Below are positions 3,040-30,659 of a stretch of 36,558 nucleotides of DNA, piece by piece. The notes beneath the pieces were generated by a model, which worked only from the letters and a program-made list of their open reading frames with translations, was not told where the DNA came from and searched no databases. How positions within the stretch are numbered: position 1 is the first letter of the stretch; the number at the start of each line of letters is the position of its first letter. Source of the stretch: Candidatus Thalassarchaeum sp. (GTDB taxonomy: Archaea; Thermoplasmatota; Poseidoniia; Poseidoniales; Thalassarchaeaceae); the NCBI GenBank assembly GCA_965658085.1, contig CBFHQW010000003.1:1-36558 (forward strand), written 5' to 3'. A program made the position numbers and the translations under genes.

Positions 3040-3114
3040 ACGAGTGTAGTGTAGTGGTTATCACCGGGCGTTGCCAACGCCTGAACCCGGGTTCAAATCC
3101 CGGCACTCGTACCA
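3040..3114 (+). tRNA. tRNA-Gly (anticodon GCC), CCA encoded
   Basis: Hand-folded cloverleaf. Acceptor is ACGAGTG/CACTCGT. Anticodon stem is GGGCG/CGCCT with loop TTGCCAA. T arm is CCGGG-TTCAAAT-CCCGG. Discriminator A is followed by CCA. Confidence 0.9.
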
Positions 3115-3545: not shown

Positions 3546-3620
3546 GCGGACATGGTCTAGTGGTTATGACAGTAGGTTCCCAACCTGCTAACCCGGGTTC
3601 AACTCCCGGTGTCCGCACCA
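3546..3620 (+). tRNA. tRNA-Gly (anticodon CCC), CCA encoded
   Basis: Hand-folded cloverleaf. Acceptor is GCGGACA/TGTCCGC. Anticodon stem is GTAGG/CCTGC with loop TTCCCAA. T arm is CCGGG-TTCAACT-CCCGG. Discriminator A plus CCA. Confidence 0.9.
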
Positions 3621-3639: not shown

Positions 3640-4515
3640 TCATCGCTCAACCTTCTCTCCGCTGGTCCAGTCGTAGATTCCCTTCCCCGTCTTCTTTCCA
3701 AGGTCACCAGCCTCCACCAGTTGGTCAAGCAAAGGGTGCGGCCTGTAACTCTCGTCATTGAAGGCATCGGCGAGGTTGTTGAGTATGTCACGTCGTACAT
3801 CCAAGCCCACGAAGTCGCTAAGCTCCAATGGCCCCATCGGATGCCGATAGCCTAGGCGCATCGCGTTGTCGATATCGTTTGCAGAGGCAACTCCTTCGGC
3901 CAGCATGCGAATGGCCTCATTGCCAAGCACGACACCGAGTCGACTAGTCGCAAAACCAGGTACATCGCGCACTAGGATAGTTGTTTTTCCCATCGCAGAA
4001 CCGATTGATTGCGCGGCTGTGATAGTCTCCTCGGAGACAGCGTCGTGGCGAACCAGCTCGAGCAGACTCATCAGTGGAACCGGATTGAAGAAGTGCATCC
4101 CGATGATCCTATCAGGGCATCCCGTCGATTGCGCTATCTCTGAGATTGGTAGTCCTGAGGTGTTGGTAGCGAGGATCGCGTGACTCGGTGCTAGGCGCTC
4201 CAACTCGGCGAAGATATCCTGCTTCAACTGCATACTTTCCGGAACCGCCTCAATGATGAGGTCGGCGCCTTCGACCGCTTCAGTCAAGTCATTGACAACT
4301 CTCAGGTTTCCCAACCACTCGGCCTTCTGATCAGATGTATTCTTGCCTCGCTCGATGCCTACCTCCCAGAAAGCCTCGATTACAGTCATCGCCAAGTAAA
4401 GACTCTCTGGAAACGCGTCGTACAAACGGGTCTTCCAACCGGTCTGGGCGCAAACTTGAGCTATTCCAGCACCCATGGTCCCAGCGCCGATGACGGCGAC
4501 GCTCTGGACTTCCAT
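3640..4515 (-). CDS. 3-hydroxyacyl-CoA (3-hydroxybutyryl-CoA) dehydrogenase
   Basis: Rossmann motif VAVIGAGTMGAGIAQ, plus NTSGLPISEIA, GMHFFNPVP and the C-terminal PMGPLELSDFVGLD. I trimmed the ORF-track start (4575) to the internal ATG at 4515 (MEVQSVAVIGAG). That start sits 5 nt after the stop of the upstream gene. Confidence 0.9.
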   Translation of the reverse strand: MEVQSVAVIGAGTMGAGIAQVCAQTGWKTRLYDAFPESLYLAMTVIEAFWEVGIERGKNTSDQKAEWLGNLRVVNDLTEAVEGADLIIEAVPESMQLKQDIFAELERLAPSHAILATNTSGLPISEIAQSTGCPDRIIGMHFFNPVPLMSLLELVRHDAVSEETITAAQSIGSAMGKTTILVRDVPGFATSRLGVVLGNEAIRMLAEGVASANDIDNAMRLGYRHPMGPLELSDFVGLDVRRDILNNLADAFNDESYRPHPLLDQLVEAGDLGKKTGKGIYDWTSGEKVER

Positions 4516-4519
4516 CCTA

Positions 4520-5080
4520 TTACTCCCTACCATAGGCCGCAAGCGCGGCTTGGAATAGCCGCTGGCGTGGCACATCGTGCTCTATGAAGCAAGTGAATGG
4601 AGCGACGTCCTTCAGTAACTCGATGGCACTCACATAGGCGCCGTAGATGAATGGATTAGCTGATTCAGTCGCAGGGATTTCAATTCCGAGCTTGGCCAGT
4701 CCCTTACGGGTGTCTTCGTCCCAGATTGCGTAGGTATGGTTGGTGAAGTGGAGGTATGCGGACAGTCTGCGCAGATCTGACCTCGCCGTCTCGGTAAAGC
4801 TCTCTATCAGGAGCGTGTCAGGATACCTAATGGCATACAACGCCAACATAACCTCTCTCTGAGTCTCCTCGCGCCAGTCACGTTCTGTTAGACCCATCCA
4901 TGAATCAATCATGTCGAGCATTTCGGGAGTGTACGGTCTGCGGACCATGTACAGCAGTTCCTCGTAACCCTCTGCATCGCCCTCTACGGAGTGGTGGTGT
5001 TGGTGGAAGTATTCAGTCAGTCTTTCGAAGAACGGTCCGCACCGCTCCTTGTCAAATGATATCAGCGCGACATGCTGCAC
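4520..5080 (-). CDS. Hypothetical helical protein co-transcribed with the diiron oxygenase (His-rich patch HQHHHS)
   Basis: 186-aa ORF packed between the oxygenase (20-nt gap) and Hbd (5-nt gap). Acidic composition like its neighbours. I recognised no family motif. Confidence 0.5.
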   Translation of the reverse strand: MQHVALISFDKERCGPFFERLTEYFHQHHHSVEGDAEGYEELLYMVRRPYTPEMLDMIDSWMGLTERDWREETQREVMLALYAIRYPDTLLIESFTETARSDLRRLSAYLHFTNHTYAIWDEDTRKGLAKLGIEIPATESANPFIYGAYVSAIELLKDVAPFTCFIEHDVPRQRLFQAALAAYGRE

Positions 5081-5099
5081 ATCAAGGCCCCCAGCCGAG

Positions 5100-6242
5100 T
5101 CAGTCTCCCTTCCATTCTCGGTATTGAATCCATTCTTGTTGCATGTACTCGTTTACCAACTGATCCTCGTCCTTGTCTGACGGGAGGACTGACGAGAGGT
5201 AATCCTCCCAAGATTCATCATCTCCTTCAAATTCATCGCCGTGTACGGTGTAACGCTTGCCGGCGAACCTACCTATGCCCCGCTCAAACTTGTCAGAGGG
5301 GATGTAGAGTTCCGGCTCTCCATCCTTGCGAACTTTGCTGATTCTTCGCATCTCATCTCGAAGTTCTTGGAAGTATAACTCTCTACTGGCTTCGTTCAGG
5401 TGCTCCCTGTCCGCATCCTCCTGTGCCTCACGCTCATCGTAGCGACCCTTGACTCCGTAGACATATGCCCATTGGGCGCTCGCCGAGTCATCGGTCCCGA
5501 ACAAATCGAGTCCAGTGCTCACCCACTTGTTGACATATTTCTGAATGAGGTCGCATGGGATGACACCCTGCTTCACTATCCGACGCAGGCCATTGGCTCC
5601 GGTTCCGAGATGAAAAGACTCCTCCTTCAGCATTGGCCCCATACTCGCAGCCAGTGGTTTGAACGATGAGGTACTGAGCATCTTGAGTTGGTACTTGCCG
5701 TCGCGATCAATGAAGTGGGTGAACATGAAGAAGTCGAGCCAGTGGTCAATCGGCTCGTTGAAAGAGCCCAGTATTCTCGTTCCTTCCTGAGCGTTTCTCT
5801 CGAGCAACTTGGAAGCTTCGCGTATCCCCTGCTCGCCGAAGAATGTGCATAATAGATAGGCCATCTGCCAGCCGTGGCGCTGCTCCTCGCACATGATTCT
5901 TAGAGCGGACTTACGGTCGTATTCAGTCGGAGCTGAGGCAAGCAGGTGGTTTTGCTGCTCAACTGAGGCGAATTCAGTATCGCCCTGAACACTGACCATA
6001 TTGATAATCGCATCGCGAATGGTTTGCTGGGGAATCTGCATCCTGCGATCCCACTTTGGTTTACCTACAAAGTCACCGAACTCAATTTGGCTGCCAGCTG
6101 TATCCCAATCGAACTTGATGTCGAAGCGGTAGTCGCCGAGCCAGGAGGGGTCGAAGCCTATTCTGGTCTGCCACTCGCTGAAGTCGTGAATCCACGCCTC
6201 GAAGTTCTGAGTATAGTCCTTGACAATCTCTGCGTCTGCCAT
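5100..6242 (-). CDS. Ferritin-like diiron acyl-CoA oxygenase, PaaA/BoxB family (closest by eye to benzoyl-CoA 2,3-epoxidase subunit B)
   Basis: 380 aa with two ExxH diiron motifs (MCEEQRHGWQMAYLL and MLKEESFHLGTG). Blocks VQGDTEFASVEQQNHL and DFFMFTHFIDRDGKYQL match BoxB-type oxygenases as I remember them. No search was run. Confidence 0.6.
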   Translation of the reverse strand: MADAEIVKDYTQNFEAWIHDFSEWQTRIGFDPSWLGDYRFDIKFDWDTAGSQIEFGDFVGKPKWDRRMQIPQQTIRDAIINMVSVQGDTEFASVEQQNHLLASAPTEYDRKSALRIMCEEQRHGWQMAYLLCTFFGEQGIREASKLLERNAQEGTRILGSFNEPIDHWLDFFMFTHFIDRDGKYQLKMLSTSSFKPLAASMGPMLKEESFHLGTGANGLRRIVKQGVIPCDLIQKYVNKWVSTGLDLFGTDDSASAQWAYVYGVKGRYDEREAQEDADREHLNEASRELYFQELRDEMRRISKVRKDGEPELYIPSDKFERGIGRFAGKRYTVHGDEFEGDDESWEDYLSSVLPSDKDEDQLVNEYMQQEWIQYREWKGD

Positions 6243-6289
6243 GCAATATCGGCAGCGAGAACTGGTATATCAAACGCTGTATCAAAATT

Positions 6290-6307
6290 CGCACTCTTTA
6301 GAGTGCG
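6290..6307 (-). terminator. Perfect 8-bp inverted repeat (CGCACTCT-TT-AGAGTGCG) followed on the minus strand by AATTTTGAT; terminator-like or operator-like element between crotonase and oxygenase
   Basis: Read directly. It starts 6 nt downstream of the crotonase stop. A T-run follows on the coding (minus) strand. A TATA-like TTTGATATA (minus strand, about 6263-6273) lies about 20-30 nt upstream of the oxygenase ATG. Confidence 0.4.
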
Positions 6308-6312
6308 TTCAT

Positions 6313-7170
6313 CTAATTCCCATCGAATTCAGGTACTTCCCTGTTGACATAGGCTGCAATCCCCTTCTTGGCATCGTCACTCTGGAACAAGTCTGATTGC
6401 AATTCTCTCTCTAGGGCGAGATGATACTCAAGAGGTATCTCCATCCCACTTTGGACGCTGCGCTTGATGTTCCCGATGGCTTTGCTGGCTGCATAGGGTA
6501 AAGTGAATTGTCCGGCGTAGTCAAGAGTGTCTTGACGGAACTCATCGAGACTGCCGGCCCAGACGTCATGAACTAGGGCCATTTCCTTGGCTTCTTCGTA
6601 CGAGAACTTGCGTCCTGTAACCATAATCTCCATCGCTTTCGCCTTGCCGACTAGGCGAGATAGTCTGGCAGTCCCGCCGGTGCCGGCGAGAACACCTAGG
6701 GAGACTTCGGGCAAACCCACCTGGCCTGAGTCCTTGCGACTAATTCGGATGTCGGCTGCCATAGCGATCTCAAGGCCACCCCCTACGGCGTGGCCATTGA
6801 GGGCGGCGATTACGAGCTTGGGTGTCTGCTCAAGCCTGCTTAGAGTCTCATTGGCATGGAGGCAGAAGAAGTACTTGAAGCCGGGACTGACTGAGTCCAG
6901 CATGCTGATACTGGCTCCAGCCGAGAAGAACTTCTCACCGTGCCCAGTCAGCATAATCACGGTGACGTCATCGTCGAAGCGCGCCTTAAGCACGGCTTCA
7001 TCGATGTCACACATCATCGAGTGGGTGTAGGTGTTCACGGGAGTCTTTCCCTTTGTGAGGGGTTCTCCAGCTGAATCCGAGCACAGCTCAATGACGGCTA
7101 TCCCGTTGTCCGTCACTCCGTAGTTCACCAGATTGTTCGTCATCGGCTCAATTTCGGGCCAAGAGGTCAT
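6313..7170 (-). CDS. Enoyl-CoA hydratase/isomerase (crotonase superfamily)
   Basis: Motifs VIMLTGHGEKFFSAGASI and ALNGHAVGGGLEIAMAADIRI (oxyanion hole). I trimmed the start from 7281 to the ATG at 7170 to remove overlap with the upstream gene's stop at 7224. ATGs at 7194 and 7143 are also possible. Confidence 0.85.
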   Translation of the reverse strand: MTSWPEIEPMTNNLVNYGVTDNGIAVIELCSDSAGEPLTKGKTPVNTYTHSMMCDIDEAVLKARFDDDVTVIMLTGHGEKFFSAGASISMLDSVSPGFKYFFCLHANETLSRLEQTPKLVIAALNGHAVGGGLEIAMAADIRISRKDSGQVGLPEVSLGVLAGTGGTARLSRLVGKAKAMEIMVTGRKFSYEEAKEMALVHDVWAGSLDEFRQDTLDYAGQFTLPYAASKAIGNIKRSVQSGMEIPLEYHLALERELQSDLFQSDDAKKGIAAYVNREVPEFDGN

Positions 7171-7223
7171 GCTAGCGCCACAGAGGGACGCCATATCAAT
7201 CAAACGGAGTTGGAGGGACGCCT

Positions 7224-8450
7224 TTAGGCGTCGTTCTCGACAAAAGACGTCTTCCCTCCGCCCTTGCGAACGAGGTCCCAATGTTCTGCAATTTCCTCGC
7301 CTCTGGTGCTTGGTTCCCAGACATCTCTAGAAAGCGCCTTCCTAAATGGCATACGACTAACCATCCTGCCGTCTGCGAGCCGTTTACGCCTCAACATGCC
7401 GAGCCTGACTGCTGGCCACAGCATTCTCCGAATTAGTCCAGGCTTGTACACCCAGCGCATGAACACGAGACCATCTCCCTTCTTGCGCTGGTCACGCATC
7501 CAGTGGTTGGCCACCATCTTGAAACCTCGATTGCCAACTCTGTTCATTAGGAAACGGTTGACGGCGCTAGCCCTGACAAGGGGAACGAGACGCCCCCTCA
7601 CTTCACTCTCGTAGTCACACTCGCCTAGGACAGCCTTGGCGGCCATAACGCCGCTAGTAACCGCGTAACGCATCCCGAAGCCCCACATGAAGTCCTGTAG
7701 GCCACCTGCCTCGCCGACATAGTAGCGACCCTCGTGTACGTACTTGTCAGGCAGCGAGAAGTCGCCCTTGCCACCGACCCTCTTAATCGGTCTTCGATTC
7801 AGGTTGTAGTGCTGTTCGTACCATGCGATGGTCTCGTTGAGGTAGCGCGAAGTCTTCTTTTGTTGGCGCCACAGACAGGTGCAAATCAGACCTATGCCAT
7901 CGATGATGATGAGATAGGAATAGGCTCCTGGGGCCAGTTTGTCATTCAGCTGGAAGGTGACGTGATTGGGATGGTCGGTGTGAAAAATCTCCCCGAATGC
8001 CACTGCACTGGACTCCTTCGGACCGGCGGCGATGATATGACAGTCATTGGGATCCCTACGGGTATCGTAGTGGATTTCTGCACCCGCATTGAGTGCCATC
8101 CGCTTGAAGCCTTGGTCGATGCAATGTTCAGCAGTCCCACGCTCTACTACACGGAAAGCGAGTCCTGATGTTCGAGGTTGAGTTATTTCGTCGTCAGGAT
8201 GGACGAGATCAATCACATCAAACGCATCGGACTTGAATTCCTCTGGGTCGAAGCCCCATTCTCGTATCTCATCGAAGAAGTCGGAGCCACTGGTCCAGTT
8301 CTCTATACCTTGGAAATCACCGTCGAAGCGAGCCCCACTATCTGAACGAATCTCGTGTACATGCACCTCAAGTCCCGCATTCGCGAGATAGGTAGCCGCA
8401 GCGAGGCCCGAGAGACCTGCACCTAGTATGTGGACTGGCTCACTGCTCAT
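7224..8450 (-). CDS. FAD-dependent oxidoreductase (geranylgeranyl-reductase / FixC-like family) with a basic C-terminal extension
   Basis: N-terminal dinucleotide fold ILGAGLSGLAAATYLANAGLEVHVHE, plus YYVGEAGGLQD near the C-terminal FAD-contact motif. 408 aa. Confidence 0.7.
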   Translation of the reverse strand: MSSEPVHILGAGLSGLAAATYLANAGLEVHVHEIRSDSGARFDGDFQGIENWTSGSDFFDEIREWGFDPEEFKSDAFDVIDLVHPDDEITQPRTSGLAFRVVERGTAEHCIDQGFKRMALNAGAEIHYDTRRDPNDCHIIAAGPKESSAVAFGEIFHTDHPNHVTFQLNDKLAPGAYSYLIIIDGIGLICTCLWRQQKKTSRYLNETIAWYEQHYNLNRRPIKRVGGKGDFSLPDKYVHEGRYYVGEAGGLQDFMWGFGMRYAVTSGVMAAKAVLGECDYESEVRGRLVPLVRASAVNRFLMNRVGNRGFKMVANHWMRDQRKKGDGLVFMRWVYKPGLIRRMLWPAVRLGMLRRKRLADGRMVSRMPFRKALSRDVWEPSTRGEEIAEHWDLVRKGGGKTSFVENDA

Positions 8451-8530: not shown

Positions 8531-8953
8531 ATGACCCGCGTACGAGTACTCATCGAGTCCGAGCGACTCGACCCCGAGGAACTGCGGGAGATGCTCGCTA
8601 CGGATGGCTGCGGCAGCGTAGTCTCCTTCGTAGGACTCACCCGAGGAGAGGATCATGGAGTGGCTGTCGAGAGGCTAGAGTTCGACGCTTGGGAGGAAAG
8701 ACTCCCCGGAGTACTGAACGAGATCGCCGAGCAGGCTCTGGGCCAGTTCGGTGTGAGTTCGGTGGTGCTGGGCCACCGCACAGGCTCGGTCGAACCGGGT
8801 GAACCCATAGTATGCATCCACATTGGCTCGCCTCATAGGGCTGAAGGTTTCGAGGCCTGCAGTTGGTTGATAGATGAGCTGAAGCGGCAGGCCCCGTTAT
8901 GGAAGAAGGAGATTCGGGCCGACGGTGAAATCTGGAAGACCGGTCTTGGATGA
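8531..8953 (+). CDS. moaE: Molybdopterin synthase catalytic subunit MoaE
   Basis: 140 aa. Blocks GCGSVVSFVGLTRGE, IVCIHIGSPHRAEGFEACSWLIDELKRQAPLWKKE are characteristic of MoaE. Confidence 0.85.
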   Translation: MTRVRVLIESERLDPEELREMLATDGCGSVVSFVGLTRGEDHGVAVERLEFDAWEERLPGVLNEIAEQALGQFGVSSVVLGHRTGSVEPGEPIVCIHIGSPHRAEGFEACSWLIDELKRQAPLWKKEIRADGEIWKTGLG

Positions 8954-10300
8954 TTATTTCGTGTCCATCACACCACTGACGCTGGCCACTGCCCCAGGTA
9001 CATTCGATGCTATTCCTTCGACCATCATCCAGCCATGTCCCTTGACCCCATCGCCAACGAGGCGAACCCCCTCTATGCCTACATCCGATGGAAGCTCAGC
9101 GCCCTGTGGGGCGCGATTACAAGGCCAGTTTCTGTGGTAGGTGTGGACACACAACTCCTCTCCGTGGTCAGAGAGCCACGGGATGGCGTCGTAGAGATCC
9201 TCACGCCCCTTCTCTATCTCTGATTTCACGCTCGGATCCGGTACATACTGGTGTGTGATCATCATGTGCTTGCCCTCAGGTGCGAGGCTCGGATCGGAGA
9301 AGGTCGGAATTACGTACCCACCAACTCTTTCCAAGCCCGGCAACATCGTTACGCCACTACCGCGGTGAGGAATATCGTCGTCTAGTGCGAACACGAAGCC
9401 TATGCCTCCGACCGCCTGAGTGTCACGGACTTGCTCTCTGATTCCCGTAGCCACCTCGAAGTCGTCCGAGAGCGCCTTGAGTAGATTCGGGTGACCGCCA
9501 TTGTGGATGATAGCATCAGCCCCTATCCACACTCCCTCATCACGACCGCGCCGCCTGATGCCGATACAGAATCGGTTGTCCTTGGTCGCCTCTTCTGCAT
9601 CGCCGGGCAGTATTTCAGTGACCTCGTGGGACAGTTTGACGCGGGCTCCGTTCTCCCGCAGGTCGCTTCGCAATCCGTCGATGACTCCCTTGCAACCCCC
9701 CTTGGGGACATGGGGACGGTCGCTCCAGAATGAGTTCTGGAGCATCCTCACGACGGTTGATGCAGGCATCTGCTCGAACCTCAGACTGATGGCGAAATTG
9801 GCGAATGCATCGACAAAATCGATGAAGTCACTAGAGAAGTACCTTGACATCCAAGTCCTGCCGTCCTCTGTTTCGTTACCCCACGGTTGTTTGGCTGGCT
9901 TCATTAACAGCCGAGGCAGGTTCAACGCGTCCTTGACTGAGAACCACGGTAGGACTCCGTAAATCGAGTTGGCCCGCCGCAACCTACCATCCTTGATCTG
10001 ACAGGCGAACTTGGTTGTCGGCAGAAATTCGACCCCATGCCGCCCAAGATTGAGCCCACCACTACTCCGCTTGCCAAGTATCAGTTTTGCGAAGGGCCCT
10101 TTCTTACCGTGCGGAATCATATGGACCGCGCCGGTTGGAATTTGAAAACCATCGTGGTCGTGCTGGGTGAACCTGCCGCCGGCGAAAGACATCCTCTCGT
10201 AGACTGAGACATCGTACTTTTGTGTCTGTGCGAGACTTGCGGCTGATGCTAGCCCTCCTACGCCGGCGCCGATGACCACTGCCTTTGCGCGCTCGCTCAT
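8954..10300 (-). CDS. NAD(P)/FAD-dependent oxidoreductase, phytoene-desaturase (CrtI)/amine-oxidase-like
   Basis: 448 aa with N-terminal AVVIGAGVGGLASAASLA...YDVSVYERMSFAGGR (GxGxxG plus the E...GGR motif of the CrtI family). It starts 10 nt after the ferredoxin gene. Confidence 0.75.
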   Translation of the reverse strand: MSERAKAVVIGAGVGGLASAASLAQTQKYDVSVYERMSFAGGRFTQHDHDGFQIPTGAVHMIPHGKKGPFAKLILGKRSSGGLNLGRHGVEFLPTTKFACQIKDGRLRRANSIYGVLPWFSVKDALNLPRLLMKPAKQPWGNETEDGRTWMSRYFSSDFIDFVDAFANFAISLRFEQMPASTVVRMLQNSFWSDRPHVPKGGCKGVIDGLRSDLRENGARVKLSHEVTEILPGDAEEATKDNRFCIGIRRRGRDEGVWIGADAIIHNGGHPNLLKALSDDFEVATGIREQVRDTQAVGGIGFVFALDDDIPHRGSGVTMLPGLERVGGYVIPTFSDPSLAPEGKHMMITHQYVPDPSVKSEIEKGREDLYDAIPWLSDHGEELCVHTYHRNWPCNRAPQGAELPSDVGIEGVRLVGDGVKGHGWMMVEGIASNVPGAVASVSGVMDTK

Positions 10301-10309
10301 CCTGCCACC

Positions 10310-10570
10310 TCAGGAGTACACTAGGGCTCCTGTCGGGCACCAAAGGAGGCACCTCAGGCAGTCGGTGCAGTTATCCTCGATGACCTCACAAAGACCCTCG
10401 ACGATTAGTGCATCGTCATTACAGGCCATGAGGCAGTAAGAGCAGCCGACACAGAGTTCGTCGATGACCTGTAGTTTGACACCGTCAGTGATAGGTCTGT
10501 CATGGGTAATGCCTGATTCTAAATCGGGGACAGCGCCCGGAGTCGCCTTGTTTCGAAACGCCTCGGCCAC
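10310..10570 (-). CDS. 2x[4Fe-4S] ferredoxin-domain protein
   Basis: 86 aa with two cysteine clusters, CVGCSYCLMAC and CTDCLRCLLWCP. Confidence 0.8.
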   Translation of the reverse strand: MAEAFRNKATPGAVPDLESGITHDRPITDGVKLQVIDELCVGCSYCLMACNDDALIVEGLCEVIEDNCTDCLRCLLWCPTGALVYS

Positions 10571-13977: not shown

Positions 13978-16599
13978 GTGGTGTCAAATGAACCCCCTGA
14001 GCCTCTGAAACCCGATTATTCGGACAGTGCTTACAAAATCAGGAGCAAGCATCGCAGGAGACTCCTTGATCGGCTAACTGAGGGCGGTGCTACCGTCAGT
14101 GTGCTGGCTAGGGATGTTGAACTCAGGGTTCCGCATGCTTCGGCAGAGATAAAACGACTAAGAAACGATGGACTGGTCTCTAGTGACCTATCTGTTGGGA
14201 GTCGTGGAGCTAAGATCCACCTGACCGAGTTGGGCTGGAAGTCAGTGAGTGCTGACGAGTGGGCTAGGGCTTCCGAGGCCTCTCCCTTGCCTGAAGACTC
14301 CAGCATGTGCTGTCTGCTTTCTCGTGATGGTCCAAACCTCCTGCTTGGAGTTATGGAGCCTTGCGACTCTCCGTTGCTACTGATTCCGAATCGCCCCCCC
14401 GTCGCGATTCCAGGCAATCCCGGTTCCACCGGAAGCGAGGGGGTTGCTTGGAGTTGGGCAGTACTCAGGGAGAGGGAACCTCGATGGTTTGACCTCTCGT
14501 CAATGGAACCCAAGTCGAGCCCCCCGCCGCCCTCCAACCCCGAGAACATAGCGGCTTACTTGGGACAGCGCACTGTAGTCGGAATAATCCGCGCTAGGTT
14601 GCTCGATGCCGAGAGACCGATTGCTATAGCGCCGGGCCAGTGGTTCGGACCTCCAGACTTCCGGCCCGCGCCCCCGTTGCCTGAGAGCGACTATCATCGG
14701 GGGCCGTGGGTACTCGGTGAATGCCATGAGATGTCACCGGAGATTAGGCCGAAGGGACCAGTGGTTGCTGTGATGGAAGACAGACTCCCTCGCTCTATGC
14801 TGCTCAGAACAGCGAGGAATAACTCCCTGGTTATCGCGGATCTCGGGGGGCTGGATACCGAGGGTGACCCATACCCTTTGGCAGCGCTTGATCCGTGGAT
14901 CGAGAGGGCCCACCCGCGTCTGAGTGATGCCGAGAGAAGACGGAGACTAGGCGCCCTGAAGGACAGGGTTAGCAAGACAAGAAAAGTGAGGACTGAGGAT
15001 TCCACCTGGAGAAGATTCAGACAGGATTGGGGTGAGTCGGTATTCACCGAGGAAGGGGATTCAATCAGGATTCTTGACCTAAGGGGACTGGGTGGCACGG
15101 CGGCCGAGGCATTAGTGAGATGGGCAGTCAATGACGACGGCAAACGCCCGCTGACTGTTGAAGTCGGGTCAGATATGCCTGAGGAACTGGTCTCTTCGAT
15201 TGCTTCTCTCTCCAATCTCCGAATGGCTCTTCTCGGGGATGAAGCAGCCGCGTTCTCCAACTTCGATATACTGGATGCCGATCCTCTGAGGCCACTACCT
15301 TGGCTGCGCTTGACAACTAGGGGAGGGAGGATATTGCCAATGCGACTGATCGATCCAGCCCAGGTCCCTGAGTTTTCAGACTCCGATGAACCGACTGTAC
15401 TAGAGTGGGAATCCCTAGGTATCGATATTGAGTTGGCCGAGAATATCGAAGAGGGCCATCTCTCAGTCATCAATTCAGCTGTAGTTCAATATCCCACAGG
15501 CAATGAGGAGTGGGCTAATCAAATGGAAGCCAGATACCCAATTGCGGCTTGGATAGCATCTCCTGCTAGGACAAGATGGCCACGCTGGCAGAGACTCAGG
15601 ACCCGACTCAGTCCAGAGTGGCTAGTACTCATGAATCTAGACGACCTTCCGCTGGAGAGACTGTCAGAGGTCGCAGACGAGGCACCCAACTCGGTTTTGG
15701 AAGAATTCTCCAAGAAGATTACCAACAGACTCAGACAGGATTCCGACGCAGCACTCAGAACGAGACCAGCGACAGATCCGAAGCAAGCAACCCGTGGAGC
15801 CGCTTGGGTAGCAGCCCAACTGCTGTCAAACGCCCCCTGGCTGCCGGAACACATGCATTCGGACTTGCTCCATTGGGCACTTGAGGCATGGCTCTCCGAG
15901 CCCCCAAGTGATTCGATGCCTGCACTACAAGGAGTCGCATGGCTATATTCTCAGGGCCGCAGCGATGAATCCAGTTTCAGACCAATACTCGAGGGGATTC
16001 GGAGCAAGGGAAGAAACTCTCCCTCTGACCATGACCTACATACTTGGGCTAGCCTAGCAGACATGATGCTTGATGACTCAAAGACTAATCTCGATGAATT
16101 GGAGAGGATACTGAACCTACCTCCTGGTTGGTGGGCACCTGTTTCCGTCAAGATACTCTCAGGGTTATTGGATGAGGAGGAATCTACAGATTGGGCTATT
16201 GCCAACACTGTCCCATGGTGCGCGGCAGTGCTGCGCCCGATTGGTGATCTCTGCCAAGCACCCGGACTCCGTTCCTACGAGCATCCTGGATGCGACTCAG
16301 AACTATACTCCCGCCTCTCTCGGAGGTTGAGGGGCAGACGCGAGCGACAGGGTATGCCCGATACTGCTGAACCGTTACTCGATTTACTCGATGCCCTAGA
16401 CGCGGTGAATGATGACAAATCCCCTTCGCCGGGAAAGACCCATCCCCTATCGGGGTGGCTCGCCCAGCCTCTGGAGAAATGGCCGGATTTCTCCTCTGCC
16501 GAGATCATGGATGGCGATTCTCACATCGCTGAGAGGTTACTCTTGAAGAGTTCAGGATATCATCCAAAAATCGTCCCTTTGACCTCGATTTCGGGTTGA
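13978..16599 (+). CDS. Large (873 aa) hypothetical protein with an N-terminal ArsR/TrmB-like winged HTH; remainder unassignable
   Basis: Uninterrupted 2.6-kb ORF with an SD-like GGAGGTG upstream. Residues about 25-90 (RRLLDRLTEGGATVSVLARDVELRVPHASAEIKRLRNDGLVSS...KIHLTELG) fit a wHTH. The rest is acidic and rich in Trp, Leu and Pro. I saw no P-loop, nuclease, HEPN or metal-binding motif. Confidence 0.7.
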   Translation: MVSNEPPEPLKPDYSDSAYKIRSKHRRRLLDRLTEGGATVSVLARDVELRVPHASAEIKRLRNDGLVSSDLSVGSRGAKIHLTELGWKSVSADEWARASEASPLPEDSSMCCLLSRDGPNLLLGVMEPCDSPLLLIPNRPPVAIPGNPGSTGSEGVAWSWAVLREREPRWFDLSSMEPKSSPPPPSNPENIAAYLGQRTVVGIIRARLLDAERPIAIAPGQWFGPPDFRPAPPLPESDYHRGPWVLGECHEMSPEIRPKGPVVAVMEDRLPRSMLLRTARNNSLVIADLGGLDTEGDPYPLAALDPWIERAHPRLSDAERRRRLGALKDRVSKTRKVRTEDSTWRRFRQDWGESVFTEEGDSIRILDLRGLGGTAAEALVRWAVNDDGKRPLTVEVGSDMPEELVSSIASLSNLRMALLGDEAAAFSNFDILDADPLRPLPWLRLTTRGGRILPMRLIDPAQVPEFSDSDEPTVLEWESLGIDIELAENIEEGHLSVINSAVVQYPTGNEEWANQMEARYPIAAWIASPARTRWPRWQRLRTRLSPEWLVLMNLDDLPLERLSEVADEAPNSVLEEFSKKITNRLRQDSDAALRTRPATDPKQATRGAAWVAAQLLSNAPWLPEHMHSDLLHWALEAWLSEPPSDSMPALQGVAWLYSQGRSDESSFRPILEGIRSKGRNSPSDHDLHTWASLADMMLDDSKTNLDELERILNLPPGWWAPVSVKILSGLLDEEESTDWAIANTVPWCAAVLRPIGDLCQAPGLRSYEHPGCDSELYSRLSRRLRGRRERQGMPDTAEPLLDLLDALDAVNDDKSPSPGKTHPLSGWLAQPLEKWPDFSSAEIMDGDSHIAERLLLKSSGYHPKIVPLTSISG

Positions 16600-18558: not shown

Positions 18559-19797
18559 TCAGAGTTGACTCTGTAGGTTGTATCTGCCGAGTGCGGCCTC
18601 GGCAATCATGGGTTCACTCTCACTCATTGTGGTGATGGCGTCCACCGCCTTGGGTATGGCCGAGTTGACCTGTTTGCTCCTTCCACCGCGGCCCTTGCTG
18701 ACGTTCCTAGCCATAATCAACCCGAGCGTATCGAGTTCGTTGAGCAGCGAAGATATTCTCCTAGGAGTGAGTGGCTCGACACTGATTTTCATGCATGCTT
18801 CGGTATAAGTCCGGTAAGTCTCTCCAGTGGAGATATTCCTCAGGCCATTATCTTCGTTCAGCCTGATTGAGAATAGTAACAACTTCTGGTGCAGGGGCAG
18901 AGTCTTCAGTACAGGAGTCACTTGGTCATACTCCAACTGACTCTGTGCCAGTCTGACGTGTCTTGGGTCCACAACCTTCTGAGCCCGCTGCTCCGCCTTC
19001 TGCACTGAGATGCGCAACAGGTCGAGCGCCCTGCGCGCGTCCCCGTGCTCCTGTGCGGCCAGTGCCGAACAGAGTTCAAGCACGCCAGAATCGAGGACTC
19101 CCTCGCGAAGACCGGTGCTAACGCGCTCGGTTAGGATGTCCTGAATCTCCGGAGCTCCGTAGGGGTGAAAGACGACATCCTCTTGACTGAGCCTCGAGCT
19201 GACTCGAGGGTCGAGTTGCTGAGTGAAGTGCAAATCGTTGCTGATTCCGACGAGACAGCAGCGGGCGTTTTTCAGAGAAGTGTTCAAGCTGGTCAGGTTG
19301 TACAGCAAACCATCTCCAGCTCTGGCCACGAGATTGTCGATTTCGTCCAATACTAGGATGTGCACCCCCCCCGCTCGATCCATCCTTTCAATCAGGACAT
19401 CGAGGACCCTGTCAGTGGGCCAGCCAGTGAATGGAATTGGAGTGTCTCCTCGTCGAGCGAGTTGGGAGGCGATGCTCTGGACGACGCGGTACTTGGTATC
19501 CACGACACGGCAGTTGATTTCGTAGGTCTCAACGCTTTGCCCCATCTCCTTGCCCTTGTCGAGAAGCTGCCCTAAGACGAATCTCGTGACCACAGTTTTG
19601 CCTGATCCTGGTACCCCATAGAGAAGCATGTTCGAAGGGATATGGCCATTCAAAGCATCAACCATATTGCGTACCAAGGCATCCACTTCGTGGTCTCTGT
19701 GGGGCAGGGTAGATGGCTCGAAGGCGTGATCGAACGCTCGCCTGTCAACGAAGAGACTATCTTGGCCGAGAATCTTTTCGAAAATGTTTCCTTCCAT
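18559..19797 (-). CDS. cdc6: Orc1/Cdc6 replication initiator
   Basis: 412 aa. Walker A is LLYGVPGSGKT and Walker B is ILVLDEID. Sensor regions are GDARRALDLLR. The C-terminal winged helix is LLNELDTLGLI...SKGRGGRSK. Confidence 0.95.
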   Translation of the reverse strand: MEGNIFEKILGQDSLFVDRRAFDHAFEPSTLPHRDHEVDALVRNMVDALNGHIPSNMLLYGVPGSGKTVVTRFVLGQLLDKGKEMGQSVETYEINCRVVDTKYRVVQSIASQLARRGDTPIPFTGWPTDRVLDVLIERMDRAGGVHILVLDEIDNLVARAGDGLLYNLTSLNTSLKNARCCLVGISNDLHFTQQLDPRVSSRLSQEDVVFHPYGAPEIQDILTERVSTGLREGVLDSGVLELCSALAAQEHGDARRALDLLRISVQKAEQRAQKVVDPRHVRLAQSQLEYDQVTPVLKTLPLHQKLLLFSIRLNEDNGLRNISTGETYRTYTEACMKISVEPLTPRRISSLLNELDTLGLIMARNVSKGRGGRSKQVNSAIPKAVDAITTMSESEPMIAEAALGRYNLQSQL

Positions 19798-20194
19798 TTT
19801 CTTTCACCCGGGGTCCAGTCGCGTATCCAGTCCCTCTCTTACTCTGGTTGAGTAGGTGTCGGCGAACGCGGATTCTTAGCGAGGGTGCAGGAGGTAATAA
19901 GACTGTCCGAGAAGAATGAAATTTTGGTTGATTATCATGCCCTCTAATGCCTCAGTATCATGCCCCTCTAACATTCACCTGAGATCTCGCTTAGTTGTAC
20001 TCAGTCAGGCTTTTTATCAATATAATTTCAGTGTATTTATTGCATCAAATTCACTCATTCATATATTTCCCCCACCCCTGCCAATATGGCAGGTAATCGA
20101 GCCTTCCGAGGACTCTCCAACAGCGACATCTGCCGCTATTTCTGGGAACTACCCTGAGGCTCAATGAAAGCTAATATAAAACAAGATAAATTAT
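19798..20194. other. Putative replication origin region adjacent to orc1/cdc6 (AT-rich unwinding element plus repeats)
   Basis: 397-nt non-coding spacer immediately upstream of cdc6. The AT-rich core is at about 20009-20070. A direct repeat TATCATGCC(C)CTCTAA occurs at 19933-19947 and 19956-19971. TCCAGTC occurs twice (19814-19820, 19826-19832). A hairpin CCTGCCA-ATA-TGGCAGG lies at 20077-20093, next to a C-run (G-run on the other strand). Confidence 0.45.
19933..19971 (+). repeat. Tandem direct repeat TATCATGCC(C)CTCTAA x2 (23-nt period)
   Basis: Read directly from the sequence. The two copies differ by one inserted C. Confidence 0.8.
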
Positions 20195-21010: not shown

Positions 21011-21116
21011 GACTTGACCTCATCGCCTTCCCTCTCTCTACGCTCACAGTACCCGTTCAGCATTTCTTCATAAACAGGTCGTGTCTCGCGGGGAACGAGC
21101 ATTCAGGAGGCTTGAC

Positions 21117-22397
21117 ATGTCGGATTGGAGCGCAAAGAATCCATACTCTTCTAATCTGAATGAGAACTACGTTCTCAATGGTAAGGGTTCGCTCAAGGAG
21201 ACTCGACACATTGTCTTTGATCTCGGTGACTCCGGTCTAGAGTACAAAGCCGGCGATGCACTGGGGGTGATTCCACGCTGCCCTCCTGAACTGGTAGGGG
21301 AGATTCTTACCACCTGTGGCTTCTCAGGTGAGGAAGAGGTCGAAACACATCTAGGGGCTTGCAGTTTGCGCGAGGCGCTCACTGACCGATACGAGATTCA
21401 TAGAATTTCAAAGAAGTGGATTGGGGGACTCGGTTCGAGACTGTCATCCAAATCGGGCAGCATCGAGATTCGAATCGTCCATCGGCAGCGAACTTCGTCA
21501 CAAGATGGCTCAGTAGTGATGGACTGGAGAGGGAGCGGAGTCGAAGATGACATTCCGGATGGATATGTCGAAATCGGTTCAGTCAGTGATCCTGCCGAGA
21601 CACTCTGGGCCGAACTAACAGAGGACCCCAAGGCAATGGAGGACTACATTTGGTCGCGTGACTACCTCGACGGCCTAGCAGACTTCGGGCACATCGGCTT
21701 TACTCCCCAGCAGCTCGTCGAGGACATGGACAGGCTCAAACCAAGACTCTATTCTATCGCCAGCAGCCCCGACTTTGAGCCGGGAACCGTTCACCTCACA
21801 GTCGCTATCGTCCGTTACAATCACCACGAGCGTGATCGGGCCGGGCTTTGCACTGGATTCATGGCCGACTACTGCGAGGTCGAGGAAACCGAGATTGGCG
21901 TATTCATGTCTCCGACTAGGTCATTCGTCCTGCCCGAGGACGGCTCGACAGACGTCATAATGGTAGGTCCGGGAACGGGAATCGCTCCATTCAGGGCCTT
22001 CCTGCAGCAACGTGAGATAGATGGCGCAAGCGGGCGCAACTGGCTGTTCTTCGGTGACTGGACTGAAGAGGGAGAGTACCTATATCGCGAGGAGATGGAG
22101 GCATGGAAGGATAGCGGACTTATCGATCGTCACGATCTAGCATGGTCCCGTGCAGGCTCGGAGAAGGTCTACGTCCAGCACCTGATGAAGCAGAACGGTG
22201 AGCAAATCTGGAATTGGATTGACGGCGGCGGATACTTCTATGTCTGTGGCGACAAGAACTACATGGCCAAAGACGTTCACACCACCCTCATAGAAATCTG
22301 CTCAGAGTTCGGTGGCATGTCAGAAGAACAGGCCAAGGAGTTCGTCGAGACTGGCCTGATGAAGACCGAGAAGCGATATCTCAGAGATGTCTACTGA
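21117..22397 (+). CDS. FNR-type FAD/NADPH oxidoreductase, CysJ / cytochrome-P450-reductase C-terminal-like (no flavodoxin domain)
   Basis: Motifs RLYSIASSP (FAD), GPGTGIAPFRAF (NADPH), YFYVCGD and a C-terminal RYLRDVY. I set the start at the ATG at 21117, preceded by AGGAGG at 21105-21110 (the track starts at the GTG at 21081). Confidence 0.8.
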   Translation: MSDWSAKNPYSSNLNENYVLNGKGSLKETRHIVFDLGDSGLEYKAGDALGVIPRCPPELVGEILTTCGFSGEEEVETHLGACSLREALTDRYEIHRISKKWIGGLGSRLSSKSGSIEIRIVHRQRTSSQDGSVVMDWRGSGVEDDIPDGYVEIGSVSDPAETLWAELTEDPKAMEDYIWSRDYLDGLADFGHIGFTPQQLVEDMDRLKPRLYSIASSPDFEPGTVHLTVAIVRYNHHERDRAGLCTGFMADYCEVEETEIGVFMSPTRSFVLPEDGSTDVIMVGPGTGIAPFRAFLQQREIDGASGRNWLFFGDWTEEGEYLYREEMEAWKDSGLIDRHDLAWSRAGSEKVYVQHLMKQNGEQIWNWIDGGGYFYVCGDKNYMAKDVHTTLIEICSEFGGMSEEQAKEFVETGLMKTEKRYLRDVY

Positions 22398-24758: not shown

Positions 24759-26450
24759 TCACTCGAGCCGCTTGATTCCAGGAAGCGGGTGCGGGTCGCC
24801 CTTGGATGATGTTCTTCTGAGTTGCGAGAACCTGAGTCCATCTTCCTGTTCAGGCAGTTGAGTGGGCCCACTCTCTCCTCCACCCGATACCCTGTTCACG
24901 AGATGGTCTAATGCGTCCTGTGCTGAATGGGGGTGAGGTGCCCGCGACTCTCTCGCTCTGCCAGCCACATCCGCCTGGTGATCTTGGTCACTGCGAAGAC
25001 GGTTGTGCTGAAAGGTCTGAAACCTAGCCCCTGACTGTACTTCCTCTCCGTCTCCATCTCCATATTCAGAAGCGTAAGAGTCGGTGGTTCTGCCAGTCGC
25101 CCGAGCCGCCGAACCTAGTAGGGCACTAATCCAACTGGCCCTTCTACGTGGAACCTTCCTACTACTGGTTTTGACTCTGCCCGAACTCATCGACTTGGCG
25201 ATTCTAGATAGTCCCGGCAATCCCTCAAGACTCGAGACATCGAGCGCAGACGGGGATATCTCACCGCTAGTCAGCAGCGCCTGCTTGGCGCGTGCCTGCT
25301 TGACGACGCCGGGTCGACATTCCTCTCGTATCGCTGCCTCAGTGGGGGCTGGCAGGCCGGGTCCGGAGTAGGGGCCTGAGGTCCCAAACCTATTTTGAGC
25401 CCGCCTAATCAACTGCGAGCTGGTCGGTTCACGTTCGGAAGCAGGAGGCCCTACAGCGTTGATGTAGGTCTCAGAAGAAGCATAGCTTGTTGCAGGTGTG
25501 ACGGAACCTGAGGGAGGAGGGGTTGTGGGTGGTGAGTAATTAGTCGCAGGTTCAGCATCGAATATGCCGCCCTCGCCGAACATACTGCCCATACCATCAG
25601 CAGCCTCACCTAGTGCCGAATCTATCCTGCTGCCAACCGGCTTTTCTTCGTACCATGAGGGAGCCTCATCTTTCCCCCATGCTCTCTCGTAAGCCGAGCG
25701 AGCATCCTCCTGAGGAGATGGAGACGGCTCGTAACTTGGGAATGATTCTGTAGGAATTTTGTCTTCCCACGGGAAAAGCGACGCAGTCTCAACTACCACA
25801 GGTGCTGAAGGAGTAGGTGGCGGGGGGGCAGCGAAACCGTCGAACAACAAATCTTCTACTGGCTCTGACTCAACACTGAGCGGCAAATCTTCCTCAGGTG
25901 CAGCCAGCAGGCCCTTTGGTTCTGGCAGCCCACCCCCTGCGTCTCTGAAAGCGGGGTAGCTCGACAGTTCCGCATCGATGTGCTCAAGCCCTCTGCGAGC
26001 TTCATCTATCGAATTGCCGTGGCGGACTCTATCGACCATCAGGCACAGCCTGAGCAGTATTCCTTCGCTGCCAGATACGATATGTCGGTCCCCTGCCTCT
26101 GTCTCGATGGCAAGGCCCGAGGTCCTGGATAACACGTATCCTAGGAGCGTCAGAGATCCTCCCGCTGTTGCCACTATGGCGTAAGGCGGCATCAGGACAT
26201 TCATGCCGAGATAGATTGCCAACAACCCAATGGGAACGGTGCCCGATGGAAACATCGGGAACTTCATGTGTCGCATTCTTGAAATCGAACCTAGGGATAG
26301 TCGGATTCCATGTCCGTCGAACCTCTCCAGCGTTAGCTGACGCTTAGTGAGGACCGCTACGAACCTACCTCCAGACCCAACCAGACTCAGATTGCCGAAC
26401 AGTTCCGACTTCTCCTCATCTCGGTCGGGCGTTAACCCGACTGAATACAT
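24759..26450 (-). CDS. Hypothetical membrane protein with a long Pro/Ser/Glu-rich, probably disordered, C-terminal region
   Basis: 563 aa. The N-terminal ~170 aa are structured, with two adjacent hydrophobic helices (PIGLLAIYLGMNVLMPPYAIVATAGGSLTLLGYVL). The remaining ~380 aa are low-complexity (PPPPTPSAP, PPTTPPPSGS). No family motif recognised. Confidence 0.55.
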   Translation of the reverse strand: MYSVGLTPDRDEEKSELFGNLSLVGSGGRFVAVLTKRQLTLERFDGHGIRLSLGSISRMRHMKFPMFPSGTVPIGLLAIYLGMNVLMPPYAIVATAGGSLTLLGYVLSRTSGLAIETEAGDRHIVSGSEGILLRLCLMVDRVRHGNSIDEARRGLEHIDAELSSYPAFRDAGGGLPEPKGLLAAPEEDLPLSVESEPVEDLLFDGFAAPPPPTPSAPVVVETASLFPWEDKIPTESFPSYEPSPSPQEDARSAYERAWGKDEAPSWYEEKPVGSRIDSALGEAADGMGSMFGEGGIFDAEPATNYSPPTTPPPSGSVTPATSYASSETYINAVGPPASEREPTSSQLIRRAQNRFGTSGPYSGPGLPAPTEAAIREECRPGVVKQARAKQALLTSGEISPSALDVSSLEGLPGLSRIAKSMSSGRVKTSSRKVPRRRASWISALLGSAARATGRTTDSYASEYGDGDGEEVQSGARFQTFQHNRLRSDQDHQADVAGRARESRAPHPHSAQDALDHLVNRVSGGGESGPTQLPEQEDGLRFSQLRRTSSKGDPHPLPGIKRLE

Positions 26451-30582: not shown

Positions 30583-30659
30583 TGGTGCGCCCGCCGGGAT
30601 TTGAACCCAGGATATGAGGTTGGAAACCTCAGGTGATAACCAGACTTCACTACAGGCGC
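30583..30659 (-). tRNA. tRNA-Gly (anticodon UCC), CCA encoded
   Basis: The reverse complement folds as acceptor GCGCCTG/CGGGCGC (one G.U), D stem GTGA/TCAC, anticodon stem TGAGG/CCTCA with loop TTTCCAA, and T arm CTGGG-TTCAAAT-CCCGG, then A-CCA. Confidence 0.85.

Follow-up and report, generated by a model that had tools for sequence, protein, structure and literature searches.

A short BoxB-type diiron protein and its 186-residue neighbour in Marine Group II archaea

In the window (the whole 36,558-nucleotide stretch of archaeal DNA analysed), a minus-strand cluster encodes a short BoxB-type diiron protein, followed directly by a gene for a 186-aa protein. On balance, we favour reading these two genes as a core module, in which a minimal BoxB-type diiron oxygenase with a docked 186-aa subunit would act on an aromatic-type acyl-CoA. 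What we demonstrate here is homology, fold, conservation of iron ligands and pocket, co-occurrence, adjacency and a predicted contact.

The locus and its BoxB-type protein

The first-pass annotation of this DNA described five co-directional minus-strand genes 5-70 nt apart, and all five are present at those coordinates, with gaps of 53, 70, 19 and 4 nt. The cluster and its borders are as follows:

3546-3620, plus strand: tRNA-Gly(CCC), bordering the cluster
3640-4515, minus strand: NAD-dependent 3-hydroxyacyl-CoA dehydrogenase (Hbd type), 291 aa (PF02737, E = 3.2e-60; PF00725, E = 1.6e-33)
4520-5080, minus strand: putative 186-aa partner of the oxygenase (P0002), GTG start, no match in Pfam or NCBIfam
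5100-6242, minus strand: short BoxB-type diiron acyl-CoA oxygenase, putative catalytic subunit (P0001), 380 aa (PF05138, TIGR03225)
6243-6312, minus strand: intergenic region between crotonase and oxygenase; hairpin and U-run, then a TATA-like box, as read from the sequence
6313-7170, minus strand: canonical enoyl-CoA hydratase (crotonase) by sequence, 285 aa (PF00378, E = 2.6e-46, 158.5 bits)
7224-8450, minus strand: FAD-type oxidoreductase (FAD2, P0394), 408 aa, Rossmann N-terminus, TIGR02032 at only 32.6 bits
8531-8953, plus strand: MoaE, bordering the cluster

Orthologues favour the ATG at 7170 as crotonase start over a TTG further upstream, at 7281, and likewise the Hbd ATG at 4515 over that at 4575. 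Within 6243-6312, a hairpin (CGCACUCU-AA-AGAGUGCG) with a U-run lies 3' of the crotonase stop, and the TATA-like TTTGATATA is found about 25 nt upstream of the oxygenase ATG; a similar box, TTTGATTGATAT, precedes the crotonase ATG. The predicted fold of this region is weak (-19 kcal/mol, z -1.9). Judging from these elements, it is likely a unit boundary and promoter. The five genes probably form two units rather than one, since the hairpin, U-run and TATA-like box separate the crotonase from the oxygenase, and since Marine Group IIa has other genes between the FAD2-crotonase pair and the oxygenase-186aa-Hbd string. The core gene order is conserved in relatives, as a proposed check of synteny confirmed.

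The 380-aa protein had been thought closer to BoxB than to PaaA, and this is borne out by profiles, PDB searches and fold. Its gene is the only PF05138 (PaaA_PaaC superfamily) gene in the genome, scoring 50.7 bits against a gathering cut-off of 28.5. Against the equivalog models, it scores 220 bits in three stretches to BoxB (TIGR03225), below the equivalog cut-off of 499.1, vs 42.5 bits to PaaA (TIGR02156), below the cut-off of 280. In the PDB, BoxB (3PER) is matched at E = 1.1e-46, the SSO1313-type protein 4MUD at 6e-21 and PaaA at about 1e-5. The AF2 model (pLDDT 94.9) superimposes on BoxB 3Q1G/3PM5 over its whole length with a TM of 0.87 by query and 0.70 by target, vs about 0.5 for PaaA. 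These sequence and model comparisons place the 380-aa protein with BoxB as a diiron protein and set it apart from PaaA.

BoxB of Azoarcus/Aromatoleum evansii (3PER, 3PF7, 3PM5, 3Q1G), the oxygenase component of the O2- and NADPH-dependent benzoyl-CoA 2,3-epoxidase, thus has its fold in common with the archaeal protein, including a homologous C-terminal region, but is longer (471-481 aa). The shortfall of about 90 aa noticed in the first-pass annotation reflects four BoxB-specific segments, together about 90-100 aa, that are absent here. The two ExxH motifs noted earlier are present (E120-x2-H123 and E208-x2-H211), as are the sequence blocks quoted with them. The BoxB iron ligands Glu120, Glu150, His153, Asp211, Glu240 and His243 (PMC5489048) align to E90, E120, H123, D179, E208 and H211, so that all six are kept. 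They are also conserved in 31/32 aligned homologues; one distant homologue (P0295) has lost them, and archaeal forms sharing 45-93% identity retain all six together with the second-shell residues. Of the seven residues that position the benzoyl group, six are kept (Q116, T119, S123, F193, F203 and F206 in BoxB numbering). The seventh, T210, is Ile in the 380-aa protein and Ile or Val among these forms; the peptide containing it governs regioselectivity in BoxB (PMC5489048). The pocket residues also occur in distant homologues and short forms, and therefore do not define the substrate.

Two other groups of the superfamily are useful for comparison. The SSO1313-type short proteins (4MUD, Sulfolobus solfataricus) belong to this family as one of its archaeal branches, and their Thermoplasmatota members likewise adjoin the same hydratase or Hbd (the hydratase in L041), but at 235-275 aa they lack the N- and C-terminal regions. 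PaaA and PaaC of the phenylacetyl-CoA epoxidase PaaABCE (3PW1, 3PVR, 4IIT) resemble our system in belonging to PF05138, in having a CoA thioester substrate and in an oxygenase requiring accessory subunits, although PaaA itself is far more distant.

The 186-residue protein

To establish how closely the 186-aa gene follows the oxygenase, we used a sample of 301 Thermoplasmatota genomes, 87 with the long BoxB-like form and 214 without. It is present in 85/87 of the former and 0/214 of the latter, nearly always directly next to the oxygenase gene; in both exceptions the oxygenase gene is cut by a contig end. It was also found in 0/6 sampled genomes of two families with the short SSO1313-type form.

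The AF2 model is all-helical (pLDDT 88.9), and its best structural match by VIA is the HhH-GPD glycosylase 3N0U (Z 6.9, 158 residues aligned). Comparison with the Atlas gave a TM of 0.63-0.73 to OGG-like and nuclease-attached domains, PF21790 was matched by 1/26 family members (E = 0.02), and Foldseek against the PDB returned no match at E = 0.001 or better. On these models the protein appears weakly OGG/HhH-GPD-like. The suggestion that it might be a ferritin-like analogue of PaaC found no support, as neither PaaC nor ferritins are among the best 50 VIA matches. Its HQHHHS patch does exist (residues 26-31), but it is not conserved, being deleted in Marine Group IIa, and we rejected it as a metal site. 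The protein has neither conserved Cys nor cofactor motif, which argues against the earlier idea that it supplies electrons. It is better regarded as an accessory subunit bound to the oxygenase than as a carrier of electrons.

Modelling the oxygenase and the 186-aa protein together gave scores of 0.75, 0.35 and 0.77 (median 0.75), while the best of three controls reached 0.16. The mark for this score was reached by 58/80 solved complexes and 2/110 mismatched pairs, counts that apply here roughly, since we used alignments of our own. Contact agreement between runs was at least 0%, and partner pLDDT at least 85. The weak point is the single run at only 0.35. The predicted contact lies on the outer face of the oxygenase helix bearing E208/H211, on a patch (SMGPxLKEExFHLG) that is conserved in partner-bearing forms but different in bacterial BoxB. 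The complex model supports binding of the 186-aa protein to the oxygenase. BoxB, in contrast to this archaeal oxygenase with its obligate predicted partner, has been described as a monomer without a structural subunit (PMC4498308).

A purely functional analogy may be drawn with MMOB and similar effector (coupling) proteins, known from multicomponent monooxygenases in bacteria, which are small, cofactor-less and bind the hydroxylase. The 186-aa protein is likewise small and cofactor-less and is predicted to sit on hydroxylase helices carrying diiron ligands, although we saw neither fold nor sequence likeness to MMOB.

Neighbouring genes, donors and distribution

The crotonase had been cast as a possible BoxC-type ring opener, a role its sequence does not bear out. 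It scores 75 bits to BoxC (TIGR03222, cut-off 712.3) vs 165 to ordinary hydratases, and has 285 aa vs about 550. Its best PDB match is 2PPY (E = 8e-59), with which the GGGLE and PEV glutamate motifs align; by the rat hydratase, we take these glutamates to be the catalytic residues. By sequence, this is a canonical two-glutamate enoyl-CoA hydratase. Such a hydratase has no known ring-opening role. Orthologues (at least 47% identity) occur in every family with a long or short BoxB-like gene, and throughout the order the Hbd gene comes after that for the 186-aa protein, while several other families have it close to the oxygenase.

BoxB works with BoxA and BoxC, but the genome, which is 83% complete, yielded neither (best 70.9 bits vs a cut-off of 459.2 for BoxA, TIGR03224, and the crotonase's 75 bits for BoxC). 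The first-pass annotation had noted that no BoxA-type reductase is adjacent, and indeed there is none at the locus or elsewhere in the genome. It had proposed the neighbouring flavoprotein, a CysJ-like reductase or a ferredoxin as electron source; none of these shows a distribution link to the oxygenase. FAD2 is in 60/63 Poseidoniales, two of which (G040, G296) lack the oxygenase, and was not found in oxygenase-bearing families outside Poseidoniales, so we rejected it as a dedicated reductase. By sequence, it is a divergent, weakly geranylgeranyl-reductase-like protein and a lineage-specific neighbour, not an obligate partner. The CysJ-like reductase (21081-22397) was likewise set aside, being found class-wide, with 8/8 genomes of one oxygenase-less family included, and in no other family, as was the ferredoxin (10310-10570), which with a CrtI-like gene (8954-10300) adjoins the cluster only in this genus. 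Since FAD2, the CysJ-like reductase and the ferredoxin track taxonomy and not the oxygenase, we assign no donor, and the earlier description of the pathway as reductase-swapped is a guess.

The oxygenase gene was found in 40/41 relatives and, among the Poseidoniales sampled, in 61/63; at least nine more families of Thermoplasmatota also have it. Its tree agrees with taxonomy, without separating the branching of archaeal forms and bacterial BoxB. The oxygenase is near-universal in Marine Group II and vertically inherited. The closest bacterial short homologues are stand-alone genes without partner or hydratase, and the distant short homologues P0243, P0246, P0248, P0275 and P0295 are in unrelated stand-alone contexts. 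One very divergent homologue (P0364) has a double crotonase on one side and, on the other, a halogenase-like flavoprotein.

RNA contigs from two metatranscriptome studies contain pieces of the four genes, and contigs of two studies span the junction of Hbd and the 186-aa gene. In runs X1 and X2 both strands are covered throughout, so that these may contain DNA; in runs X5 and X6 most of FAD2 has no cover, from which nothing follows. Marine Group II boxB was listed among highly expressed genes in a Red Sea study (PMC5069720), and that automatic 'boxB' annotation is the sole mention in the literature we searched, which yielded no biochemical study of the gene. Near-universality and high expression reported by one study fit a housekeeping step and aromatic catabolism equally well.

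Possible reactions and their meaning

From the above we infer an oxygenase activity and its substrate, donor, partner role and order of steps. The diiron centre would be reduced by a donor not dedicated to it, for which a ferredoxin is the most plausible candidate, and would activate O2 and epoxidise (or hydroxylate) the ring or a double bond of an aromatic-type acyl-CoA, perhaps benzoyl-CoA or a close analogue. The 186-aa partner may act as a structural or effector-like subunit, replacing the BoxB-specific segments absent from the short form. The product would then pass to ordinary CoA-ester enzymes, the co-inherited enoyl-CoA hydratase and NAD-dependent 3-hydroxyacyl-CoA dehydrogenase.

The substrate may instead be a different, internally made CoA thioester, such as an aryl-acetyl- or aryl-propionyl-CoA derived from the breakdown of amino acids, or else a cyclic or unsaturated acyl-CoA, in a core step and not a pollutant or lignin route. 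We consider this a serious, if minority, possibility. The gene is near-universal and vertically inherited, and one study counts it with the highly expressed genes of Marine Group II; a ligase acting on free aromatic acids was not found, T210 with its role in regioselectivity is replaced, and no such partner is known from BoxB. However, the pocket is otherwise BoxB-like, and no result indicates a candidate substrate. One obvious aryl-CoA source also seems to be missing, as five near-complete relatives gave no genuine indolepyruvate oxidoreductase above cut-off, and we rejected this enzyme as the source.

That the protein is a genuine benzoyl-CoA 2,3-epoxidase, and that benzoate is degraded by a full Box pathway with exchanged parts, the hydratase standing in for BoxC and a general reductase for BoxA, is in our view doubtful. 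BoxB is the closest characterised relative, with 6/7 benzoyl-positioning residues kept, a crotonase-family enzyme is co-inherited, and aldehyde dehydrogenases and thiolases are encoded elsewhere in the genome. Yet the cluster has no aldehyde dehydrogenase, and the hydratase keeps both glutamates and scores far below the BoxC cut-off. Benzoate-CoA ligase was not found in the genome (best 34 bits), and therefore a free-benzoate route would lack its first enzyme; five near-complete relatives have only one or two AMP-binding genes each.

Ferritin-like diiron enzymes include desaturases, and the oxygenase is constantly accompanied by a canonical hydratase and by a 3-hydroxyacyl-CoA dehydrogenase, which would suit an O2-dependent acyl-CoA desaturase or hydroxylase feeding ordinary beta-oxidation. 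This seems improbable, since the genome already has six genes for acyl-CoA dehydrogenases as well as a beta-oxidation cluster separate from this one, and therefore no gap for a desaturase to fill; we also know of no desaturase in the PaaA/BoxB family. A role as acyl-CoA dehydrogenase stand-in was rejected on the same six genes. Least probable of all is a ferritin-like iron-binding or regulatory protein merely retaining the fold, since, although the ligand loss in P0295 indicates a family capable of decay, the constancy of six ligands and second-shell residues across archaeal forms suits catalysis.

More speculatively, and with the balance against it, the pair may be a new two-subunit diiron CoA-ester oxygenase of Marine Group II and related Thermoplasmatota, in which an OGG/HhH-GPD-type nucleobase-binding domain serves as effector or CoA-adenine clamp, and whose strongly expressed O2-dependent reaction would be a core step with an internal CoA thioester, not benzoate, as substrate.

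Marine Group II archaea rank with the most abundant surface-ocean microbes and, to our knowledge, have no cultured member. To express and assay the oxygenase/partner pair, the organism need not be grown. If our preferred reading of a BoxB-type oxygenase with its own partner is true, it would give Marine Group II carbon metabolism a defined, testable O2-dependent reaction. Were the substrate aromatic, these archaea would share in the turnover of aromatic dissolved organic matter; were it not, the enzyme would widen the range of reactions in the PaaA/BoxB family.

The proposed oxygenase and its gene cluster

All five minus-strand genes proposed in the first-pass annotation lie in the window exactly where it had placed them, with intergenic gaps of 53, 70, 19 and 4 nt. 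The window is contig C3 of its genome, which the source names of its nearest protein relatives assign to Marine Group II (order Poseidoniales, family Thalassarchaeaceae). A gene on the opposite strand closes the cluster at either end.

Genes of the cluster and its borders
8531-8953, plus: MoaE, closing one end
7224-8450, minus: FAD-type oxidoreductase (FAD2)
6313-7170, minus: crotonase
5100-6242, minus: PaaA/BoxB-family protein, 380 aa (the oxygenase)
4520-5080, minus: 186-aa protein that matches neither Pfam nor NCBIfam (the partner)
3640-4515, minus: 3-hydroxyacyl-CoA dehydrogenase (Hbd)
3546-3620, plus: tRNA-Gly(CCC), closing the other end

The 380-aa protein scores above the Pfam PaaA_PaaC cut-off (50.7 vs 28.5 bits), and the initial judgement that it resembles BoxB rather than PaaA stands. 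It reaches 220 bits on the BoxB model TIGR03225, well short of the equivalog cut-off of 499, and 42.5 bits on PaaA. The closest solved structure is BoxB of Azoarcus evansii (E 1.1e-46), followed by the uncharacterised SSO1313 (6e-21) and then PaaA (about 1e-5). An AlphaFold model built from 32 homologues (pLDDT 94.9) matches BoxB (3Q1G, 3PM5) over its whole length at TM 0.87, against about 0.5 for SSO1313 and PaaA. Four stretches of BoxB have no counterpart in the oxygenase: about 30 aa at the N-terminus, about 20 aa following the E208/H211 helix, a third, internal stretch that is also about 20 aa long, and the C-terminal tail. Judged by sequence and predicted fold, it appears BoxB-like in all testable respects, yet it falls outside the BoxB equivalog.

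The iron ligands of BoxB (Glu120, Glu150, His153, Asp211, Glu240 and His243; PMC5489048) align with E90, E120, H123, D179, E208 and H211, and all six are retained in 31 of 32 aligned homologues, bearing out the diiron motifs read at first pass. Among the BoxB residues that hold the benzoyl group in place, Q116, T119, S123, F193, F203 and F206 are retained and T210 is replaced by Ile. Retention of these pocket residues speaks for a functional BoxB-like active site; it does not fix the substrate, since distant and short homologues retain them too. A 367-aa homologue surrounded by unrelated genes (P0295, L025:8001-9104) has lost five of the six iron ligands, with HNSNHH replacing EEHDEH, and is probably a non-catalytic offshoot. 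Another contig, from a hydrothermal vent (L026:1190-5428), encodes, all in one direction, a double crotonase (492 aa), a divergent BoxB-like protein (394 aa) and a flavin-dependent halogenase-like protein (505 aa).

The oxygenase gene is single-copy in the window's genome, and 40 of the 41 close relatives carry it. Across the phylum, sampled with 301 genomes, it occurs in 61 of 63 Poseidoniales and, at 45-60% identity, in nine or more further Thermoplasmatota families. Its tree matches taxonomy within the archaea that carry it; three bacterial BoxB representatives form a single long branch, which the tree does not place relative to the archaeal forms. Two genomes of the same genus (family f23) have one in-frame TGA in their BoxB-like match (G115:C3:52905-53993 and G109:C10:18270-19358), which may reflect recoding, a broken gene or a fault in the assembly.

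The crotonase carries GGGLE and PEV, the two motifs that hold the catalytic glutamates in ordinary enoyl-CoA hydratases, and its closest solved relative is the hydratase 2PPY (E 8e-59); on the BoxC model it reaches only 75 bits against a cut-off of 712. Orthologues (at least 47% identity) occur in every family with a long or short BoxB-like gene, and adjoin the short form at one locus (L041). One family and two genomes that lack the oxygenase have them as well.

Between crotonase and oxygenase lies a hairpin with a U-run (z only -1.9), followed by a TATA-like TTTGATATA. Taken with the split arrangement seen in Marine Group IIa, these features suggest two units, FAD2-crotonase and oxygenase-partner-Hbd. 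Across the order, Hbd lies 3' of the partner gene, separated from it in Marine Group IIa by a DMT/EamA-type transporter (L018:11058-11981, plus strand; likewise in L017, L022 and L023), and it lies near the oxygenase in several families outside the order. The same four loci encode a 208-aa protein without an NCBIfam match directly upstream of the oxygenase (L018:8658-9284, plus strand).

Elsewhere in the window, all three tRNAs found are tRNA-Gly: GCC at 3040-3114 (plus), CCC at 3546-3620 (plus) and UCC at 30583-30659 (minus). Upstream of an Orc1/Cdc6 gene (18559-19797, minus), the 10-nt direct repeat TATCATGCCC occurs twice in the gap (19933-19965), and this region may be an origin of replication. 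Two large ORFs, of 873 aa (13978-16599, plus) and 563 aa (24759-26450, minus), match no Pfam family significantly and have only a weak HTH match.

The 186-aa partner

The partner is the most informative result of this analysis. Its profile matches 85 of the 301 genomes, all among the 87 with the long oxygenase, and none of the 214 without it. The co-occurrence spans at least eleven families, within which related genomes are not independent. Almost always the partner gene is the next gene to the long oxygenase; in the two long-oxygenase genomes without it (G272 and G134), a contig end cuts the oxygenase gene.

Structure prediction of the oxygenase-partner complex supports binding, with scores of 0.75, 0.35 and 0.77 (median 0.75) against 0.16 for the best of three controls. 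The mark for such scores was reached by 58 out of 80 complexes of known structure and by 2 out of 110 mismatched pairs; both counts are only rough here, as the predictions used our own alignments. Contact agreement between runs was at least 0%, and partner pLDDT at least 85. On the oxygenase, the predicted interface is made up of residues 45-48, 190, 201-217 and 373-380, and would thus cover the outer face of the E208/H211 helix and the C-terminus. A patch of the oxygenase, SMGPxLKEExFHLG, is conserved among partner-bearing forms and different in bacterial BoxB. Since three of the four contact segments border sites of extra sequence in BoxB, we infer that the partner may take the place of BoxB segments absent from the oxygenase.

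The partner does not appear to be the ferritin-like PaaC analogue considered at first pass. Its model is all-helical (pLDDT 88.9), and Foldseek gave no clear match in the PDB. An HhH-GPD 8-oxoguanine glycosylase heads the VIA matches (Z 6.9, 158 residues), and in the ESM Atlas the model resembles OGG-like and nuclease-attached domains (TM 0.63-0.73); Pfam OGG is touched by one of 26 members (E 0.02). All three resemblances are weak. Nor does the sequence favour the suggestion that it supplies electrons: an electron-carrier role seems unlikely because no cysteine is conserved in the family and the HQHHHS patch is missing from Marine Group IIa as well as from other families.

Candidate electron donors and the surrounding pathway

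No BoxA, BoxC or benzoate-CoA ligase scores above cut-off in the window's 1.34-Mb, 83%-complete genome, and the BoxA-type reductase first reported as missing beside the oxygenase was thus not found elsewhere in this genome either. The other suppliers proposed in the first-pass annotation fare poorly, as none of their distributions matches that of the oxygenase. FAD2 is restricted to Poseidoniales, is kept in two oxygenase-less genomes and was not found in other oxygenase-bearing families. The CysJ-like reductase (21081-22397) occurs class-wide, including in an oxygenase-less family, and no family beyond the class yielded it. A ferredoxin and CrtI-like pair stands beside the cluster in this genus only. 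None of the three behaves as a dedicated reductase. The pair, a 2x[4Fe-4S] ferredoxin (10310-10570, minus) and a CrtI/CrtD-like FAD enzyme (8954-10300, minus), is inserted between MoaE and MoaC, a position where it was not found in eight other Poseidoniales loci; in Thalassarchaeaceae, high transcription of crtI/crtD has been reported and linked to retinal synthesis (PMC9723583).

Five near-complete relatives have only one or two AMP-binding genes each and no bona fide indolepyruvate oxidoreductase. Together with the missing BoxA, BoxC and ligase, this leaves the classical benzoate route incomplete. Ordinary beta-oxidation has no need of the oxygenase, as the genome has matches to six acyl-CoA dehydrogenases, four 3-hydroxyacyl-CoA dehydrogenases, five thiolases and five aldehyde dehydrogenases.

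Two separate metatranscriptome studies of marine samples yielded RNA contigs with near-identical pieces of Hbd, partner, oxygenase and crotonase. Such contigs bridge the partner-Hbd junction, and cannot rank expression. Marine Group II boxB was among the highly expressed genes in a Red Sea study (PMC5069720). In another study, a 3-hydroxyacyl-CoA dehydrogenase, which may be any of four paralogues and not specifically the cluster's Hbd, was one of six non-ribosomal genes with high transcription in each of the three Marine Group II genomes examined (PMC9723583).

The gene cluster noted at first pass is upheld as an observation, and its interpretation there is upheld in part. We somewhat favour a BoxB-type diiron oxygenase of two subunits, which would act on an aromatic-type acyl-CoA and be reduced by a non-dedicated donor, its product then passing to ordinary hydratase and dehydrogenase steps. 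Benzoyl-CoA would be one candidate substrate of several.
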